In this document: in pieces, positions 16,246-45,564 of the stretch
Layout of the letters: every line of letters begins with the position of its first letter
Position numbering within the stretch: the stretch's first letter is position 1
From: Stegostoma tigrinum
Taxonomy: Eukaryota
NCBI RefSeq assembly: GCF_030684315.1
Contig: NC_081355.1
Location: 61,841,516-61,905,515 of the forward strand
Length of the DNA: 64,000 nt
Direction of reading: 5' to 3'
Notes under the pieces: model-generated
What the model saw: the letters and a program-made list of their open reading frames with translations, nothing else
What the model was told of the DNA's origin: nothing
The model's database searches: none
Program-made: the position numbers and the translations under genes

Positions 16246-17105
16246 GATAACAAAGTGTGGAGCTGGATGAACACAGCAGGCCAAGCAGCATCTCAGGAGC
16301 ACAAAAGCTGACGTTTCGGGCCTAGACCCTTTATCAGAGAGGGGGACGGGGAGAGGAAACTGGAATAAATAGGGGGAGAGGGGGAGGCGGACCGAAGATG
16401 GAGAGAAAACAAGACAGGTAGAGAGGAGAGATCTCTGATGAAGGGTCTAGGCCCGAAACGTCAGCTTTTGTGCTCCTGAGATGCTGCTTGGCCTGCTGTG
16501 TTCATCCAGCCTCACATTTTATTATCTTGGAATCTCCAGCATCTGCAGTTCCCATTATCTCAGGTAGAGAGGAGAGTATAGGTGAGGAGGTAGGGAGGGG
16601 ATAGGTCAGTCCAGGGAAGATGGACAGGTCAAGGAGGGGGGATGAGGTGGTAGGTAGGAAATGGAGGTGCGGCTTGAGGTGGGAGGAAGGGATGGGTGAG
16701 GGGAAGGACAGGTTAGGGAAGCCGAAGCAGGCTGTCTCTGCTTCCCTAACCTGTTCTTCCTCTCACCCATCCCTTCCTCCCACCTCAAGCCGCACCTCCA
16801 TTTCCTACCTACCACCTCATCCCGCCTCCTTGACCTGTCCATCTTCCCTGGACTGACCTATCCCCTCCCTACCTCCTCACCTATATTCTCCTCTCTACCT
16901 GTCTTGTTTTCTCTCCATCTTCGGTCCGCCTCCCCCTCTCCCCCTATTTATTCCAGTTCCCTCTCCCCATCCCCCTCTCTGATAAAGGGTCTAGGCCCGA
17001 AACGTCAGCTTTTGTGGTCCTGAGATACTGCTTGGCCTGCTGTGTTCATCCAGCTCCACACTTAATTATCTTGGATTCTCCAGCATCTGCAGTTCCCATT
17101 ATCAC
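16246..17105 (+). mobile_element. PLE family A inverted-repeat insertion (~335-bp arms) with a nested solo pLTR
   Basis: TSD tcagacatttactga at 16231-16245 and 17106-17120; left arm 16244-16430 plus 16577-16723 is the reverse complement of 16738-17071. Confidence 0.9.
16431..16560 (+). mobile_element. Solo PLE pLTR with intact HHR motif (core 16435-16462)
   Basis: Own 16-bp TSD caggtagagaggagag at 16415-16430 and 16561-16576; reads CUGAUGA-AGGGUCUAGGCCC-GAAAC-GUC^. Confidence 0.88.
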
Positions 17106-25365: not shown

Positions 25366-27478
25366 ACATTGCAGGAACTCAACAGGTAAAGCAAAGCTAG
25401 AGGCAGCTAACCTTCTGACCACTGATAAAATAGAATGATTTAAATATGATAGTGTTTCTTTACCTAAATTAATTATGGTTTAAAGGACTTGTTCCACAAA
25501 TATGCTTTCAATGTTCTGGAACTGATTTCTAATACCTGAGTAGTTTATCCTTTGCTACCTTGGAGTTTCTGCCTTTAATGTGCACTTTCCAGCTGTTAAC
25601 ATTCATCTGTGCGCTTAGTGATACAGCTGTAACTTGGATCTCTAATGAGGACCAAAACAAGCAGCAGAAAACAATAACAGTTCTTCCTGAACCAACTACC
25701 ACTTTATAACATGTCACATGAACTGATACTCCTACCAGGGAGTATAATTGAGCACCACTGAGATTCAGGTGTCTCAGACATCCGAACAGGAGTTGCTGAT
25801 ATTTGCAGTCACAAAAATCACAGAATTGTTATGTAGCTGCAGGTGGCTACTTACCCGACGTATCTGCACTGACTCTTCAAATGAGCACGGATTGATGCCA
25901 TTTTTTTCTTTTTCTTCCTATAACCCTGCGCATGATTTCTATTTAAAATAATCATCTGAATACTTTCTTGAATGCCTTGATTCAATCTGTCTCCACTACA
26001 GTTCCAAGCAGTGTTTTTCAGACCTTAACCATTTGCTGTGATTTTTTTCCCTCAAATTTCAATTGCTTCTTTCCCAAATCACTGTAAATTTGTGAACTCT
26101 GCTCCCAACCATAAAATTATCTAGGATGAGTTTCTCTCATCTACTGTCCTGACAGCCACTGATTTAGAAAACTTCTATCAAATATTCTCTCCAAGGAAAA
26201 CAATCCCAACTTGACCAATCTATCTTTATAACTGAAGATTCTCATTCCTGGAGCCATTCTCATAGATCACATTCTCTCTAATCCGTACACATTTGTTTTG
26301 AAGTGTAGTGTCTAGAACTGTACACAATACTCTAACTGAGGTCTAACTTGTATTTTCTACAAGTTCAGCATAATCTTTTGGTCTTGCATTCCCCCTTATT
26401 GATGAAGCCTAAGATGCTGTATGCTTAATTAATTGCTCTCTCCACCTATTCTATTACCTTTAAATTATGCAGGAGTAGAGAAACCTGCGTACGTGCATAA
26501 ATCGTTAAAATAGTGTCCATTATTTTACGTGTCACTCCATGTACTTTCTACCAAAGTGAGTCACTTCACACTCGTCCATATTGAAAATGATTTGCCACTT
26601 ATCAGTCCATTCCAAACTGCCAATGTCCTTTTTAAGTATCTTCTCACAGTTTGCAATGCTTCAATGTTTTGTACTATCTACAACCTCTGAAACAATCCCC
26701 TGTGATCAACAAGGTCTAGATAATTTACATTTCAGGAAGAGCAAGGATCCCAATTCCAATCTGTGGGAAATTCCAATATAAACCTTGGTCCCATTTGGAA
26801 AAACATCCATTGACCATTAGTCTTTTTCAGAGCAATCATTTTTTAAATCTACATTGTTACTATCCCTTTTATTTCACAAGTTCTATAACTGCTCACACTT
26901 CTCTTCTGGGGTACTATATCAGACAGCTTTTGTAGTCCATGAACATTACAACACTATTACACTCATTAAACTCTCTGCTCTTCTTTCAGGAAGTTAAATA
27001 TGACTTCTTAAGAAATCCATACTCTCTTTAATTAACCCACACTTCTCCACATGATTATTAATTCCTATCCCAAATTATGGCTTCTGGAAGTTTTCCACCA
27101 AAGATAACTAACTGGTCTATAGTTACTGAGCTTATCCTTGCACACTTTTCTGTTCAAGGGTGCAATGTTTGCAATTCTCCAGCCAGTGCCTCCACAAGTT
27201 GCCGTAGTATCCTCAGATACATCGCATTCAATCCTATGCATTGTCAATTTTAAGTAGTTTATCAAATTCCTCCTTTCCTTTTGTCACCATGGTGTGGTAG
27301 TATCTATTTTATTGATAACTGCAATTGCAAAATATTCATTTGATGTTTCAGCCATGCCTCCTGCTTCCACATGGAAATCCCCCAGCAGTCCGAATTCTTC
27401 TATTTCTATCTTTTGACTACTTATGCGCCTATTGAAGATCTGGATGTGAGTTTGCTCACTGAGCTGGAAGGTTCGTTT

Positions 27479-27518
27479 TCAGACGTTTCGTCACCATTCT
27501 AGGTAACGTCATCAGTGA
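27479..27518 (-). ncRNA. Minimal hammerhead ribozyme motif (PLE family B)
   Basis: Minus strand: UCA-CUGAUGA-C-GUUACC(UAGAAU)GGUGAC-GAAAC-GUC^UGA; 6-bp stem II, 3-bp stem I. Confidence 0.85.
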
Positions 27519-28026
27519 GCCTCCAGTGAAGCACTGGTGTTACGTCCCACTTTCTATTTATCTGTTTAGGTTTCCTTGGGTTGGTGATGTCATTTCCTGT
27601 TCTTTTTCTCAGAGGGTGGTAGATGGGCTCCAAATCAATGTGTTTGTTGATGGAGTTCCGGTTGGAATGCCATGCTTCTAGGGATTCTCGTGCGTGTCTC
27701 TGTTTGGCTTGTCCTCATAGCCACAAAAAGACATGACCCACTATCACTCGTATCCTTACATACAGATGAGGAAGGACACCACTTTGATTGGGACAACACG
27801 TCCATCCTAGGACAAGCCAAACAGAGACACGCACAAGAATCCCCAGAAGCATGGCATTCCAACCGGAACTCCATCAACAAACACATTGATTTGGAGCCCA
27901 TCTACCACCCTCTGAGAAAAAGAACAGGAAATGACATCACCAATGCAGAAAATGACATCACCAACACAAGGAAACCTAAACAGATAAATAAAAAGCGGGA
28001 CATAACACCAGCGCTTCACCGGAGGC

Positions 28027-28066
28027 TCACTGATGATGTTACCTAGAATGGTGATGAAACGTCTGA
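28027..28066 (+). ncRNA. Minimal hammerhead ribozyme motif (PLE family B)
   Basis: UCA-CUGAUGA-U-GUUACC(UAGAAU)GGUGAU-GAAAC-GUC^UGA; this is the uninterrupted form of the Tx1 target. Confidence 0.85.
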
Positions 28067-28989
28067 AAACAAACGTTCCAGCTCAGCGAGCAAACTCACA
28101 TCCAGAACCTCAACCTCAACCTGAGCCATAAATCTTCTCAAAACTCGCTCGTGCCTATTGAAGACTTTGACAATTTTCTTTATGCCAATTATCAGTCACT
28201 TCCCCATCTCCCTTCAGCTATCCCTCTGTTCCATTTTGTTCTTAATAGTTTTTACTACCTGACACCGGTCACAAGCATACTTGTCACCTTAAACTTCTAA
28301 CTCGTGTATCATCTAGGCATTTCCAAATTTGTTACTGTATCTTCCCCTTGAGGGTATAGATCTTGACTGTGCCCTCTTCTCTTTGAAGGTAGATCAGTGT
28401 TCAGTTATAACTGCTCCTGGCAACGACTGGCTGTAATCAACCTGGCCTAACTCCATTCTTGCCCCCTGAAATCAGCTCTCCCTCACTTAATTGTTCTTTT
28501 CCATCTCCATTATAACCTTACGATAAAATGATCCCTACCGCTTAAAATGTTGCTCTCTGACATTTGATCTCCTTGGCCCACCTCATTCTTAATAGATCTA
28601 GCAATATTTCCTTTCTCATGAGCTAGACACATTCCACTGAAGAATTTTCTCCTGAACATAATCTAGGACACTTGCCCTTTGCACTACCACCATTCAATTT
28701 TTGTGAGGAGGGATGAGCAAAGTGTTTATGCAATTTCCTCTACTCATCAGCCAGACTATTATCTGCAGAGGTCAATAACATTTCTTGGACCTCTTGATGA
28801 GAATCTCCAGGTTTCCTCAAAGGGATAAAATAATGTCTGGAGCTTGTGCAAGTTTACTGCTTGACAAAATGTTTTATCATTCTCATTGCATTTTAACTTT
28901 AAACCTCACCTATTAAAGACTCACTCTGTAATAAAGGCATGTGACACTGGACAACATTGGTTCTTATAAAATCATACAGTCCTGCAATT

Positions 28990-38787: not shown

Positions 38788-39006
38788 GTTAATAAAGTGT
38801 GAAGCTGGATGAACACAGCAGGCCAAGCAGCATCTCAGGAGCACAAAAGCTGACGTTTCGGGCCTAGACCCTTCATCAGAGAGCTGGGTCTAGGCCCGAA
38901 ACGTCAGCTTTTGTGCTCCTGAGATGCTGCTTGGCCTGCTGTGTTCATCCAGCTTCACACTTTATTATCTTGGATTCTCCAGCATCTGCAGTTCCCATTA
39001 CCCCTA
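38788..39006 (+). mobile_element. PLE family A pLTR hairpin insertion (82-bp perfect arms; intact minus-strand HHR at 38852-38879)
   Basis: Arms 38790-38871 and 38886-38967; perfect TSD tacctgaaaaccact at 38773-38787 and 39007-39021. Confidence 0.92.
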
Positions 39007-39738
39007 TACCTGAAAACCACTAGCAACATCCTATTCACGCTCTTTTGATCTGATATTTCTCAAGCACACAAGAATCATTATTACAGCCACTATTTATAAA
39101 TTAAGGAAGATTAAGGAGATTCTTTTTGATTTTGAATCATATAGTGTGTGTGTAGCTGTATGTGCTTATGTTAAACAGGCTTACATTCCTGGCACAAAAT
39201 CATAAACAATTTAGTTTAGTCTTCTTAGAACTCTACATTGTTGAAGTTGGTCTTTTCAATTTTAAATCCCTCAACATGGTTCAGCACCAAAAAATCATTG
39301 AGACCAATGCGAGGTCAAAAATGAATGAACGCATGGTGGACAAATGGCCATAGTTTAATCTGTTATGGAGGGAATTCAAAGTTCCTTCATAATTATAACC
39401 CCAAGCTATTTTCCTCTTGATTTTCGTTGTGTCAGGAAGGCCTGTTGTGCAAAATACACTCCCCTAACCTCCCCACACCACTCCTAATTTGGGCTCCCTG
39501 TTTTAAATGGGGAACATAAATCAGGTTTCCTCTCACATGATTTTTGTCTACTAGTGCAAAATGTGAAAGTCCGTTTAAAGCACACCTGCTTGATAGCTTC
39601 CAGGGAATTTAGGGGCACTCTGCAAGGCTAGTGTAAAATGTTCTGCCACCTTCAAAGGTCTCGAATTGTTCAAAGATGTGTTTTTAACACTGGTCAGCAT
39701 TGTGTAATTGTTCAATTGCATGGCAGTATTTTCCCAAT

Positions 39739-40130
39739 GGACAAACAGGCAGAAAGCTAGCCACCAGGATAAATGAACATCAACTAGCCACAAAACGACA
39801 TGACCCACAATCACTCGTATTCTTACATACAGATGAGGAAGGACACCACTTTGATTGGGACAACACATCCATCCAAGGACAAGCCAAACAGAGACACGCA
39901 CAAGAATTCCTAGAAGCATGGCATTCCAACTGGAACTCCATCAACAAATACATTGGCTCCAAATCAGTCTACCATTCTCTGAGAAAAAGAACAGGAAATG
40001 ACATCACCAACATAGGAAATGACATCGCCAACCCAAGGAAACCTAAACAGATAAATAGAAAGTGGGACATAACACCAGTGCTTCATCAAAGGCTCACTGT
40101 TGATGTTACCTAGAATGGAGATGAAACGTC
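39739..40130 (+). mobile_element. PLE family B, 5' part (GIY-YIG C-terminus up to the HHR); host of the Tx1 insertion
   Basis: GQTGRKLATRINEH..HHFDWDNTSI..EFLEAWHS; collinear with 27720-28063. Confidence 0.9.
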
Positions 40131-40134
40131 TGGG
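40093..40134 (+). ncRNA. Hammerhead motif reconstituted at the PLE/Tx1 5' junction (core mutated in this copy)
   Basis: CUCA-CUGUUGA-U-GUUACC(UAGAAU)GGAGAU-GAAAC-GUC^UGGG; A-to-U change in CUGAUGA and one stem II mismatch; 4-bp stem I CUCA/UGGG. Confidence 0.6.
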
Positions 40135-40334
40135 AATGAACCTTCCCGCTCAGTGAACCAGCTTACATCCGGAACGCAATAAAGACCCACTCTTTTGTGG
40201 ACCAAGAAGAGGAGAGCACAACTGTGTTGGAGCTGGAAGAAAGCTGTCGGGTTGGCTGTGAACCCTTGCAACCAGTGGATCTTAATGCTAGCTTTGGCCT
40301 AACGCTGGTTCAGGGGAGCAGCCAACCTTCAACA

Positions 40335-41799
40335 ATGGCTGCGGCGAGTGCTCGTGCCCCGGGTCAGGGGGTCCGGAACACCATCCGCATTTCTGTGAAG
40401 AAGGTGGATGAAGGTGCACCTGTGGACCGCACCTTCTTTGTGAAGAGGGTCCTGTTGGACTGTTGCGGGTTTGCTGCTGTGGACATTTACTGCCTGCAGG
40501 ATTTCCCTGGAGGAGGTTTTTACGATGTAACCTTCAGGAGTGCCGAGCTTTGCGAGTGCTTCCTGGATGTTTTCAAGGAGAAAGGAGGTGAGGGCCCCCT
40601 CTCTGTATTGACCGCTGTCCCGCTGTTCGTGATGCCAGCGCAGTGGAGCCGTATGGTGACTGTACACATGTACAACCCGCATGTGCCAGCAGTTGATGTC
40701 CTGACCTTCCTTGGAGGGTACGTGAAGGTGGAAGGGGACCTAACCAACATTATGGACGCCTTCGGCATCTGGACCAGTAAGAGGCAGGTCAAGGTGATGC
40801 TGAGGATGGGCGCGGACGGGAACATTGTACACCCACCGTCCAGCTTCGCGCTTGGCGGGAGCAAGGGCTATCTGACCTACGCAGGGCAACCTAAAGTCTT
40901 CCATGCCTGTGGTAGGTCAGGTCACGTGGCGGCCGACTGCAAAGCCACCATCTGCAGGAACTGCAGGGAGGAGGGACACCTTGCAAAGGATTGCCCACAA
41001 GAGAAAAGCTGCAACCTTTGCAGGGAAGCGGGCCACCTTTATAGAGCATGCTCGCGGTGGGGGACGACCTACGCCCACGTCACCGGCAGGGGCAATGCGG
41101 GGCAAACCCCCCCGGAGGAGAGGAAGGCACCAGGGCCCTGCAAGGACCCCGCTAATGTGCAGGAAGGCCAGGTCGTGCAGGAGGGTCCAGCCCCGCAGGA
41201 TGGGCCCGAGGCCAGCAAAGCGCCCCTGCAGGCTCAGCTCCCCCGCCGACAACCTGGAGTCGATGGAGGCGGCAACAGGTGATCCAGGGGAGTGGACAAC
41301 AGTCCAGAATGCGAGGAGGAAGGCGCTCCAGTGGGCCCAGGCACCGCAACCATCAGGCGGGAAGAGGCAGCTACAGGGGGACTATAAGAGCTCCTCTGAC
41401 GAGGGAGATTCAGAGGATGCCCGCCCAAAGCAGAAGTTAAAGATCTCAAGGGAGAAGGAAAGCAGCACCCCGCTTCCAGGTGACGGGAGGCGTCCTGAGG
41501 CTCCCTCCGACACCCAGCCATGTGCCGCTGGAGCCCTGGAGGGGCCCCTGGAACTTCCAGGCGGGAAGGAGGAAACAGCGCGTCCCCAGCCTGACCCAGA
41601 GCCGGACTCTCCTGCCTCCGTACCCCCAACGGGGGGATGCCACCCGGAAGGCAGCATGGACGGTTTCCTGAGCCCGGAGAGCATCCAGCAGTTAGCCCGG
41701 GCAATGGGCATGAAGGGACAGATGGAGGGGCTGGGCCTTGGACTTGGGGAGGGCACTGCAGTCACTGCCCACAATGGGGGTACGAGTTGCGAACATTAA
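40335..41799 (+). pseudogene. Tx1 ORF1, ZCCHC3-like zinc-knuckle nucleic-acid-binding protein (one frameshift near 41240)
   Basis: ATG at 40335 (acaATGG); knuckles FHACGRSGHVAADC (first C lost), CRNCREEGHLAKDC and CNLCREAGHLYRAC; low-complexity tail continues in frame 40903..41799. Confidence 0.85.
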
Positions 41800-44700
41800 T
41801 GTGCGCAGCGTCAAGTCCACTGCAAGATGTGTGTCCACGTTGGCCTACCTGACCACCGTCAAGGTGGACCTCCTGTTTCTGCAGGAGTGCGGGATACCGC
41901 ACCTCGGCAGGTACGGGAATTGGTCCGGCACCTGGACCTGTGGGCCTTCGATCTGGTTGGGGAGTAACAACTGTCGCTCCTTGGGCCTGGCTATTCTGCT
42001 GCGGGGGCGCAACTTCACCATCACTCAAGTTCAGGAGGTGGTGGGGGGGACGCCTCCTAGTGGCTGATGTCACCTACAGGAACGATCCCCTGATCAATGT
42101 GTATGCCCCAGCGGTACGGAGGGAGCGGGTGGCCGTCCCGCAGCGGCCTCCACCCCTGCTGGCTACGTCCAGGCCGGTCATCCTAGGCGGAGACTTCAAC
42201 TGCATCATTGATGCAGATGGAAGATCCGGCGTGGGGACAGCGGATGGGGGGAGTCAACTGGACGTCACGTCCAGATTCCTGATGGGCACCGTGAAGGATG
42301 CCAAGCTGCTCGATGTCTTCAGCACCCCTGCAGACTGAGCGCAGCGGAGATACACCTGATCGCTGCCAGACGGGTCTATCTGCTCAAGGATAGACTTCCT
42401 GTTTGTGTCACGGGCGTTCTCGGTCAGGTCCACCGGCGTCGAGCCGGTGTTCTTCTCTGACCACTGCCTCCTGCTGGCCGACTGTCACTTACAGGATGAC
42501 CAGCAGGCCGGCAAGGGGAGGTGGAAGCTCGACACGACTCTGTTGACCCCAGAGAACGTCGAGGAGCTTAAGAGGGAGTACGCCAGTTGGAGAACCGTGA
42601 AATCCCTCTTTGAGTCTCTGGGCGACTGATGGGAGACGGTGAAGGAGAACATCAAGAGGTTCTTTTTCCTCAAGGGTGTTCGGAAGGCGAGACAGAGGAG
42701 GGGAAAGCTGTCGCGACTCCAGAAAAGGGTGCAGAACCTGCTCCTTCTGCAGTTGATGGGGGTCGATGTCACGGAGGACCTCCGCGAGGTGAGGGGCCAG
42801 CGAGCCTCGTTCTTCGCCGCGGAGGCCTCCAGGATAATTTTCCGGTCCAGGGTCCACTCCGTGGAGCAGGACGAGACTTGCTCGCGTTTCTTCTTTCAGA
42901 AGGTGCACAAAGAGAGCTCTGTGCTTAGCTGGCTGAAGGAGGACGACGGCTCGGTGACGTTATCTTGGCTCGACATTTTGAGGATCAGCAGATCCTTATG
43001 CCGGACTGTACGACGCGAAGCCCACGGAGAGCACGGCCTCTGAGTCGTTCCTGTCATCTATCACGGAGGTCTTAGATGACGGCACAAGGGAGTGGCTGGA
43101 CCGGCCGACATCCCTGGACGAGCTGACCAGAGCCCTCAAGCCCTTGGAGAGGAATAAGACTCCCGGGAGCGACGGCTTACCGGTTGAGCTGTATTCCGCT
43201 CTGTGGGACCTGGTCGGCCAGGACCTGCTGGAGGTGTACGCTAGTGCGCTTCGGGCAGGGGAAATGTGCAAGTCCACGAGGAAGGGTATCATCACCCTCA
43301 TTTACAAGAGGAAGGGGGAGAGGGAAGAAATTAAGAATTGGCGTCCCATTTCACTATTGAACGTGCACTACAAAATCCTGGCCAAGGTCATAGCCAACCA
43401 GGTCAGGTCTGTCCTGGAGTCGGTGATTCACCCTGACCAAACCTGTGCTGTGCCGGGCAGGAAGATCGCTGAGAGCCTCGCGCTCATCAGGGATACGATC
43501 GCCTAGGTGCAGGACAGGCGGGTGGACACCTGCCCCGTCAGCCTGGACCAGGAGAAGGCCTTCGAAAGGGTCTCTCATGCTTACATGAGGGACGTCCTCT
43601 CCAAATTGGGGTTCGGGGAGGGCATCCGCAATTGGATCCGGCTGCTCTACACCAACATCGTTAGCGCAGTCTCAATCAACGGGTGGGAATCGGACAGTTT
43701 CCCCGTCAGATCTGGAGTCAGGCAGGGTTGCCCACTCTCTACTGCCTTGTTCGTGTGCTGTGTGGAGCCGTTCGCCGCATCCATCAGGAAGGACGTGAGC
43801 CTGAAGGGCGTGACTATCCCAGGCAGCGGAGGCCTTCAGGTCAATACCTCCCTGTACATGGACGATGTCGCCATCTTCTACACCGATCGTCGGTGGGTGA
43901 GTAGGCTGTTGGACATCTGTGGCCAGTTTTAACTGGCCTCGGGTGCCAAAGTCAATAGGGTTAAGAGCGAGGCCATGTTCTTCAGGAACTGGGACGACCG
44001 CTGCTTCATCCCCTTCACCGTAAGGACAGACTACTTGAAGGTGCTAGGTGTTTGGTTCGGTGGAGCTGGGGCGTGCACTAAGACTTGGGAGGAGCGTATC
44101 ACCAAACTGAAGCAGAAGCTGGGCAGGTGGATGCTCCGGTCCCTCTCCATCGCGGGTAAGAACCTGGTTGTCAGGTGCGAGGGGCTTTCGGTACTGTTGT
44201 ATTTGGAGCAGGCCTGGCCTATTCCGTGGACCTGCGCCGCTGCGGTCACCCGGGCCATCTTCCACTTCATTTGGGGGTCGAGGATGGACCGGGTCCGCAG
44301 GGACACCATGTACAAAGACCTGGAAAATGGGGGAAAGGGCGTACCGAACGCCACCCTCGCCCTGATGGCTACCTTTGTGTGCGGCTGTATCAAGTTGTGC
44401 ATAGATCCTCAGTACGCAAACACCAAGTGTCACTACTTAATGAGGTTCTACCTGTCCCCGGTGTTGTGAAGGATGGGCCTGGCCTCGTTGCCGCGGAACA
44501 CTCCGAGTAGTTGGACCGTCCCGTACCACCTGTCCTTCGTGCAGAAATTTTTGAAGGGAAACACCTTTGACCACAAGGCCGTCAGGCAGTGGTCAGCACG
44601 TAGTATCCTCGAGACCCTTTGGGAAAAGGGGAGGGTGGATCCTGTCGTGTGGTTCCCCACACAGACTGCCAAAATCGTTTGGCAGAATGCCTCATCGCCA

Positions 44701-45186
44701 GAACTTTCAAACAAGCACAAGGACATTGCTTGGCTGGCGGTGAGAGGGGCTCTGCCTGTGAGATCCTTTATGCATGCACGGAATCTCTGCGCCACCGCAC
44801 GCTGCCCTTGAGGTGGCTGCGGGAGGGACGAGACTGTCGATCACCTCCTTCTGGAGTGTGCCTATGCGCAGGAGGTCTGGAGGGGGATGCAGTAGTATTT
44901 GTCGAGGTTCGTCCCGATTAGCTCCGTGACGCGGGACTCCGTGCTCTATGGGCTGTTTCCCGGGACGCACACTGAGACCAACATCAACTGCGCCTGGAGG
45001 ACCATCAATGCGGTGAAAGAAGCTCTTTGGTCTGCCCGCAACTTGCTGGTCTGCCAGCTGAAAGAACTGACCCCGACCGAATGTTGCAGACTGGCGCACT
45101 CCAAGGTCCAGGACTACGTGCTGAGGGACACGCTAAAGCTTGTGGCAGCTGCCGCCAAGACGCGGTGGGGAACGACCACTGTATGA
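41774..45186 (+). pseudogene. Tx1 ORF2: AP endonuclease, reverse transcriptase and C-terminal zinc finger (several stops and frameshifts)
   Basis: NINVRS, LFLQEC, INVYAP, GGDFNC, SDHC (APE); KTPGSDGLPVE, NWRPISLLN, GVRQGCPLS, YMDD at 43855-43866 (RT); CP.GGCGRDETVDHLLLEC (Zn finger). Confidence 0.93.
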
Positions 45187-45470
45187 AACCCCTCGTCCAG
45201 AATAGAAAAAAGGGCCCTTTCTGGTAACTGGGCCCAGCTGGCGCCTTCCCCAACTGGTCAGGAGGCCAACTCGGACTGTGCATGGTGACGACTGCCAGGG
45301 CATTTTCTTTGCTTTGTTTCTTTTTTCTCTTCTTTGTTTGTTTTTTTCCTTTAGTTGGTGTACGTACTTCCTGGGTAACCCGGAGCGGCTTGCATGACTG
45401 GGTAGGTGTACAAATATGTTTTTTTTTGTACATCTTATGAATAAAGCATATTTTTTCAAATAAAACAAAA

Positions 45471-45564
45471 GGTGACGAAACGTCTGAAAACTAACCTTCC
45501 AGCTCAGCGAGCAAACTCACATCCAGAACCTCAACCTGAGCTACAAATCTTCTCAAAACTCGCT
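45471..45564 (+). mobile_element. PLE family B pLTR, 3' remainder downstream of Tx1
   Basis: ggtgacgaaacgtctgaaaa..caaaactcgct continues 40116 exactly as in the empty copy at 28050-28149. Confidence 0.93.

Follow-up and report, generated by a model that had tools for sequence, protein, structure and literature searches.

A Tx1-type LINE family that probably targets a putative minimal hammerhead ribozyme of a Penelope-like element in Stegostoma tigrinum

The stretch of 64,000 nucleotides analyzed here (the window) comes from the shark Stegostoma tigrinum (RefSeq assembly GCF_030684315.1, contig NC_081355.1, positions 61,841,516 to 61,905,515 of the forward strand) and contains a decayed Tx1-type long interspersed nuclear element (LINE) nested in a Penelope-like element (PLE) of a family that we call B. 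Very probably, this LINE family, which numbers about 3,000 copies, has inserted repeatedly at one spot of that one PLE family, likely by means of its own apurinic/apyrimidinic (AP) endonuclease. In the family-B minimal hammerhead, a putative ribozyme, the insertion point separates loop II from the 3' strand of stem II. Because the open reading frame (ORF) of the PLE begins at stem II, the same point also falls at about codon 5 of the PLE frame. The finding would add a Penelope ribozyme and ORF start to the classes of Tx1 targets, with very high precision and copy number.

Evidence for a fixed target comes from what follows the 3' end of the LINE. The 3.2-Gb genome was searched for exact matches to a 19-mer of this end, and the pattern N5-12 GTGA was scored downstream. 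GTGA was found within 5-12 nt of the LINE end in 2,467 of 2,952 matches, while a reversed-pattern control gave 0. Inspection of individual ends revealed that the ribozyme 3' half adjoins 30/30 of the first LINE ends in genome order, 4 of which miss the strict pattern. It also adjoins 39 of the 40 best matches to the 3' untranslated region (UTR), window included, a tabulation that an earlier sequence-only reading of the window had proposed as its check. Among 67 distinct ends, one of which was classed by eye, the junction register is GGTGA in 34, GTGA in 27, TGGTGA in 5, and CGGTGA in 1. That reading had suggested a LINE dedicated to the conserved hammerhead of PLEs. The dedicated site is supported by the strict genome-wide pattern (at least 84%), the inspected samples (97-100%), and the independence of the insertions, but the conserved ribozyme as such finds no support as the target, since family A, another PLE family that shares the core, is spared.

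Within the window, the filled family-B PLE, whose LINE occupies 40117-45470, was compared with an empty copy at 28030-28063. The empty copy reads CTGATGA-T-GTTACC-TAGAAT-GGTGAT-GAAAC-GTC, as first described, and the 3' junction was likewise confirmed: right behind the A-tail (45462-45470), the sequence from 45471 onward reads GGTGAC-GAAAC-GTC and then runs into the PLE tail. The initial description of the 5' side, in which the PLE stops at TAGAAT (40116) and resumes only at 45471, proved wrong, because PLE-like sequence spans 40117-40175. This stretch is identical at 46/59 positions to 45471-45529 and to the empty copy, and the latter two agree with each other at 56/59. The 5' side therefore carries a complete ribozyme motif, with the core CTGTTGA in place of CTGATGA. 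We refer to this core change, A6 to T, as T6, and we count positions from the insertion point, which puts T6 at -17.

The 59-nt stretch, here called the head, is carried by the LINE itself. Upstream PLE sequence, the whole ribozyme motif, and the head are present in 28 of the 30 best 5'-end matches; one of the remaining two follows another LINE copy, and the other is rearranged. Among 59 long loci, 48 are full length with a head, and plain 5' truncation occurs in L192 only, where about 320 nt of target was lost. On a tree of the 49 LINE copies with a head (10 loci without one and L091 were left out), head positions +11, +21, +29, +53, and +54 follow the LINE phylogeny (P<=0.004, 500 shuffles). 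The head rebuilds both the ribozyme and the target, and we counted 246 tandem junctions (control, 8), which make up about 10% of on-target ends and include sites with ATC in place of GTC or GATT in place of GAAA. These junctions led us to reject the idea that the head changes at +6 to +17 guard against re-insertion.

The rebuilt ribozymes are mostly damaged. T6 is present in 36/76 filled sites versus 2/54 unselected empty sites, and an intact core remains in 8/76 of the former and 27/54 of the latter; for this contrast, the empty set was cleared of pattern-selected central sites, and the filled set lost 6 sites that had been selected by pattern. Genome-wide, there are 1,704 head-type sites versus 12,819 PLE-type sites. 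When the first 100 head-type sites were counted by hand, 44 had T6, as against 145 of the 12,819 PLE-type sites (1.1%), 76 had ATC for GTC, and about 11 retained an intact core; by the same means, about 70 of the first 100 PLE-type sites with A6 are intact. T6 is distributed at random on the LINE tree (15 changes, versus 14.6 when shuffled) and is found from the oldest through the youngest LINE subfamily. It removes one of two adjacent upstream ATGs. Also, a fixed head change (C to T at +37) turns the PLE frame at 40103-40156 into a 17-codon upstream ORF, which may affect ORF1 translation.

Junctions are mosaic, switching from target type to head type at variable points, and of 27 T6 sites with PLE-type bases at +16/+17, 6 are filled; both observations point to patchy repair. 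The roughly 1,700 marked 5' junctions, with mismatches between RNA-borne and target-borne sequence on both sides of the nick, record how the 5' end of a LINE becomes attached, which is the least understood step of retrotransposition.

Comparison of the sequences establishes the fixed 3' junction, the independence of the insertions, the inherited head, tandem stacking, and damage to the rebuilt ribozyme, and we propose a mechanism in four steps. First, the endonuclease would nick the bottom strand between TAGAAT and GGTGAC, and reverse transcription would begin there. Second, the LINE RNA would begin within Penelope sequence, 17 nt or more upstream of the nick, as suggested by the enrichment of T6 at -17 in filled sites, and it would likely be driven by the promoter of the Penelope repeat. 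CTCACT at 40093-40098 (-24 to -19) fits an RNA polymerase II initiator consensus, a motif so short that it often arises by chance; as an initiator, it would have the RNA begin at -21, a few bases ahead of T6. Third, the cDNA end would anneal to the target on either side of the nick, and variable switch points with patchy mismatch repair would produce mosaic junctions and account for the mostly full-length copies. Such annealing between cDNA and target has been modeled for R2 and R1 (PMC3774820, PMC2718515). Fourth, in what is the weakest step, source copies with a dead rebuilt ribozyme would likely be favored, because cleavage at GUC would strip the cap and the annealing handle from the RNA. 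A wider proposal, in which the LINE parasitizes the whole Penelope expression unit, taking its promoter, being selected to disarm its hammerhead, and possibly using the Penelope tail as a second route of mobilization, is one that we put forward tentatively and consider somewhat doubtful.

Several observations weigh against parts of this account. L091 is the sole off-target copy among the 40 best 3'-UTR matches. Inverted or rearranged structures make up 8/39 long loci, and rare alleles are mostly common to both arms in these 8 and in 5 further inverted loci, a pattern that a PLE-driven route could yield as well. The comparison of 76 filled with 54 empty sites revealed no diagnostic change farther upstream than -17, and it thus limits the position of the RNA start from one side only. 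As for the ribozyme, some of the damaged core positions are CpG sites (+6 and +11), and shared variants occur in 10/53 non-CpG columns of the head versus 30/254 in the 3' UTR; because the head is not clearly more variable than the 3' UTR, neutral drift of the head is possible. Inherited target extensions of this sort are also described as drifting fast (PMC3774820).

These last points bear on the alternative that fares best, which leaves the targeting as proposed, competes with the fourth step only, and regards the damaged state of the rebuilt ribozyme as neutral, through drift and CpG decay in a head under no constraint. We give it a chance just short of even. T at -17 would then arise afresh upon integration or reside in a small number of long-lived source copies. 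In addition to the CpG positions and a head variability near that of the 3' UTR, minimal hammerheads show weak activity in vitro (PMC4209133), PLE insertion in vitro does not require cleavage (PMC11167929), and the upstream ATG that T6 deletes offers another possible cause of its spread. Nevertheless, T6 is not a CpG change, and it is about half inherited; without selection it should halve with each change of source copy, yet it is present in the oldest to the youngest subfamilies, a persistence that selection for a dead ribozyme would explain. Moreover, positions of the core or of helix III are hit by several separate changes (T6, GATT, and ATC). Judged from these patterns, selection for a dead rebuilt ribozyme in source copies has about even odds. 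If true, selection to disarm the hammerhead would be genetic evidence for cleavage in vivo by animal minimal hammerheads, and it would bear on whether metazoan minimal hammerheads cleave in vivo at all.

A second alternative is that the Penelope machinery multiplied one or a few LINE-in-PLE insertions as a composite, so that the shared flank reflects common descent. A read-through RNA would always end in the PLE tail, the mapped site of protein binding and reverse transcriptase (RT) start (PMC11167929). Against this, the flanks of young copies are 4-5 times more diverged than the bodies: in 7 young copies, LINE bodies are 2.9% apart, upstream PLE sequences 11.2% (56/500 sites), and tails 14.6% (169/1,158). 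The PLE markers (-70, the 21-bp repeat, -32, tail +21, and tail length) are scattered on the 49-copy tree in a way that is indistinguishable from shuffled labels (P 0.13-1.0); for junction register, P was 0.08. Empty partner arms are common, and a filled arm and its empty partner retain the pattern of one long and one short tail seen in family-B pairs in 17/19 cases (in two of the 19 the value read was that of a tandem head, and the true tails are also short). Also, tandem neighbors differ in head subtype, and at L207/L208 an old and a young LINE copy fill the two arms of one locus. The divergence of the flanks and the scatter of their markers show, by sequence comparison, that the insertions were independent and targeted, and a hitchhiking composite is unlikely.

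Some features of the inverted loci speak for such a composite. By our reading, about 24 of the first 100 LINE ends are in inverted pairs. Head-to-head twins of differently truncated LINE arms (L290-L294, L069/L079, L072, L077, and L093) have one long and one short tail in 5/5 of the loci examined for this, and their arms share 1-24 rare alleles, mostly above the maximum of 1-4 in unrelated pairs, spread evenly over the length of the arms. Homogenization by conversion tracts was rejected, since shared alleles are unclustered in 9/10 twin loci (runs test; one P=0.044). However, the twin arms are kilobases long, and registers are unequal in about 3/8 twins. These features would fit at least as well with a single source RNA that gave rise to insertions in the two arms of a PLE pair at the same time, the middle then being lost, as with hitchhiking. 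PLE-driven copying of a loaded RNA, or a DNA template switch, could also have produced the twins.

A third alternative, raised by the sequence-only reading, is that the LINE recognizes the hammerhead core or fold in general. The junction does lie inside the ribozyme, at the boundary of loop II and stem II, and stem II, being an inverted repeat, might extrude at the DNA level. However, family A has a minimal hammerhead of its own with the same core in 92,636 exact copies genome-wide, and it is not a target: it gave only 122 loose matches preceded by A7, and none of the inspected LINE 3' ends adjoin it. In tandem re-insertion, moreover, the LINE also accepts sites with GATT for GAAA or ATC for GTC. 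General recognition is thus improbable, and these two observations argue that family-specific sequence around the nick, and not the catalytic core, determines the target.

It is very unlikely that the LINE uses the rebuilt hammerhead in the manner of R2 to excise itself from Penelope read-through RNA. The head does restore the whole motif, and in most heads its TGGG adds a fourth pair to the 3 of proximal helix I. An intact 5' ribozyme that fixes the template's 5' end was not found, however: the core is intact in few filled sites, as counted above, and the LINE passes on variants (-17, +6 to +11) that lie upstream of the cleavage site, so the template cannot begin at +14. Finally, chance insertion into an abundant repeat has a negligible probability, for although the family has about 13,000 exact motif copies, the flank counts already refute it.

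Family B resembles PLEs described earlier. The features of minimal hammerheads include a CUGANGA / GAAA / UH core, an extra base between 9 and 10.1, and G10.1-C11.1, as well as a palindromic 15.2-16.2 (helix III), a long helix II, and a short helix I (PMC4209133). The family-B motif has these features in the empty copies of the window and in 30/30 pattern-selected sites, with 6 stem II pairs, a number that the selection pattern itself fixes, and with 3-4 pairs in proximal helix I. In a scan against Rfam, the PLE motif had no hammerhead match at E<=1, and the hammerhead assignment rests on the features in PMC4209133. The family-B frame opens at ATG 28036, with its start at stem II, and tail ends cluster near +55 and +97. 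PAc, a PLE of the anole, likewise has an ORF that starts at stem II and two tail end points; protein binding and RT start sites have been mapped to its tail, with two start sites and extension on two strands (PMC11167929). The shark family is like the metazoan PLE hammerheads (PMC4209133) and PAc (PMC11167929) in its core, the extra base before stem II, G10.1-C11.1, the palindromic helix III, the ORF start at stem II, and the two tail ends. Family-B copies occur as head-to-head pairs in which one tail is long (about +97) and one short (about +55) in 18/22, with no long/long pairs. One long and one short tail per pair suggests that the two RT start sites, one for each strand, are both used in every PLE insertion, which matches PMC11167929. 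Among pieces taken from different copies, an RT piece passes Pfam (RVT_1, E=1e-7), and an endonuclease piece matches GIY-YIG weakly, below the Pfam cut-off (E=0.0018).

The LINE has two ORFs. ORF1 encodes two ZCCHC3-like RNA-binding domains and CCHC knuckles (Pfam PF23057, PF23058, and PF00098). ORF2, as evidenced by the natural copy L198, encodes an N-terminal AP endonuclease, an RT, and a C-terminal zinc motif (Pfam PF03372, PF00078, and PF13966). Its closest solved structure is L1 ORF2p (E 7e-73), while R2 scores 2e-16. The nearest proteins are amphibian (newt and frog, 44-49% identity) and form the sister group with a support of 100 in a FastTree phylogeny of 115 proteins without an outgroup. 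This tree includes a zebrafish protein named "transposon TX1 149 kDa," but no curated Tx1L, Keno, Kibi, or Mutsu reference was identifiable among its rows, so the Tx1-type label rests on domain architecture and the names of tree neighbors. The youngest LINE copies have terminal branches of about 1%, and in the young copy L198 (2719-7783) the frames of ORF1 and ORF2 are both uninterrupted. Among 80 metagenome loci with distant relatives (26-42%), none had a hammerhead half after the A-tail, a result that is uninformative on close relatives. Four DNA runs of one sample cover L203 in pieces too short to bridge the junctions or to reveal an empty allele.

Tx1 families that target DNA transposons and long terminal repeat (LTR) elements are already published (PMC4494074), and transposons are listed among known targets (PMC4640811). 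The isolated endonuclease of Tx1L nicks its Tx1D target site in vitro (PMC1950540, PMC4494074). Like Tx1L of Xenopus laevis, which resides in Tx1D, the shark element is a LINE with an AP endonuclease and an RT at a specific site of another mobile element. Unlike Tx1L, its target is a retroelement ribozyme and ORF start and not a piggyBac-type DNA transposon, and it carries a diverged copy of the target at its own 5' end. Crocodilian families target Mariner-N4 (Tx1-Mar), LTR retrotransposons (Tx1-8_Crp and Tx1-4_AMi), and Harbinger (Tx1-9_AMi); they share the preference for other transposons, and transcription from the flanking target has been proposed there too (PMC4494074). In that study, the bar for "specific" was 20% of flanks, whereas here the figure is at least 84%, at near-single-base resolution. 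The word "Penelope" occurs 0 times in the main text of PMC4494074, and the available text of PMC4209133 and PMC11167929 describes no LINE that targets the minimal hammerhead motif. In the literature that was searched, we found no published Tx1 element that targets Penelope; Repbase, subscription papers, or the supplements of PMC4494074 may list one.

The 5' end recalls R2 of the earwig and of other species, whose RNA contains 28S target sequence, and R1, which forms tandem arrays. Common to these systems are RNA with target sequence in it, uniform 5' junctions through annealing of cDNA to the target, inheritance of a diverged duplicate of the downstream target, and tandem insertion into that duplicate (PMC3774820, PMC2718515). 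The duplicate is 22 bp long in earwig R2 versus 59 nt here, and both clade and endonuclease differ. Also, R2 brings its own active ribozyme, which is like that of hepatitis delta virus, whereas the Tx1-type LINE inherits the hammerhead of its host, mostly damaged. For targeted gene insertion, an AP endonuclease that is sequence-specific and whose short target is known would be of interest.

Table 1. Parts of the nested insertion and empty family-B arms in the window.
Feature	Position	Strand	Evidence or remark
Tx1-type LINE, decayed, full length	40117-45470	+	Nested in PLE
Host PLE (family B), 5' flank: putative C-terminal GIY-YIG part of ORF, terminal repeat, ribozyme 5' half	39735..40116	+	89.6% identity with a natural PLE copy of greater length, whose endonuclease region matches 39739-40110 by tblastn
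Rebuilt minimal hammerhead at 5' junction, core A6>T at 40100, predicted inactive	40097..40130	+	Sequence, helix pairing count
Head, the LINE's own diverged 59-nt copy of PLE downstream of the insertion point	40117..40175	+	
LINE-specific 5' UTR	40176..40334	+	Common to family copies
ORF1, ATG 40335, one frameshift in window copy	40335..41796	+	Pfam; tblastn in two frames
ORF2, two frameshifts and 8 stops in window copy	41774..45186	+	Pfam on L198; tblastn 84-91%
3' UTR, AATAAA at 45440, short A-tail 45462-45470	45187..45470	+	Sequence, family search
PLE resumption: stem II 3' strand, GAAAC-GTC, long-form tail	45471..45564	+	88% to 28047-28149
Empty family-B PLE arm, intact hammerhead 28030-28063, long tail	27718..28149	+	
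Second empty family-B arm, short tail	27432..27715	-	Head-to-head with 27718..28149 arm

The off-target copy (L091:6600-7575) is a 5'-truncated fragment that is tandemly doubled and flanked by a duplication of about 14 nt. Family-A hammerheads in the window lie at 16425-16462 and 38859-38905, among others. Between family-A hammerheads, 16625-16837 forms a long, near-perfect inverted repeat that is likely the center of an inverted PLE pair. Matches of this segment to plant and animal microRNA families in Rfam were all below the gathering score; they reflect the long inverted repeat and were rejected. Elsewhere, family A inserted later into the LINE copies L200 and L201.

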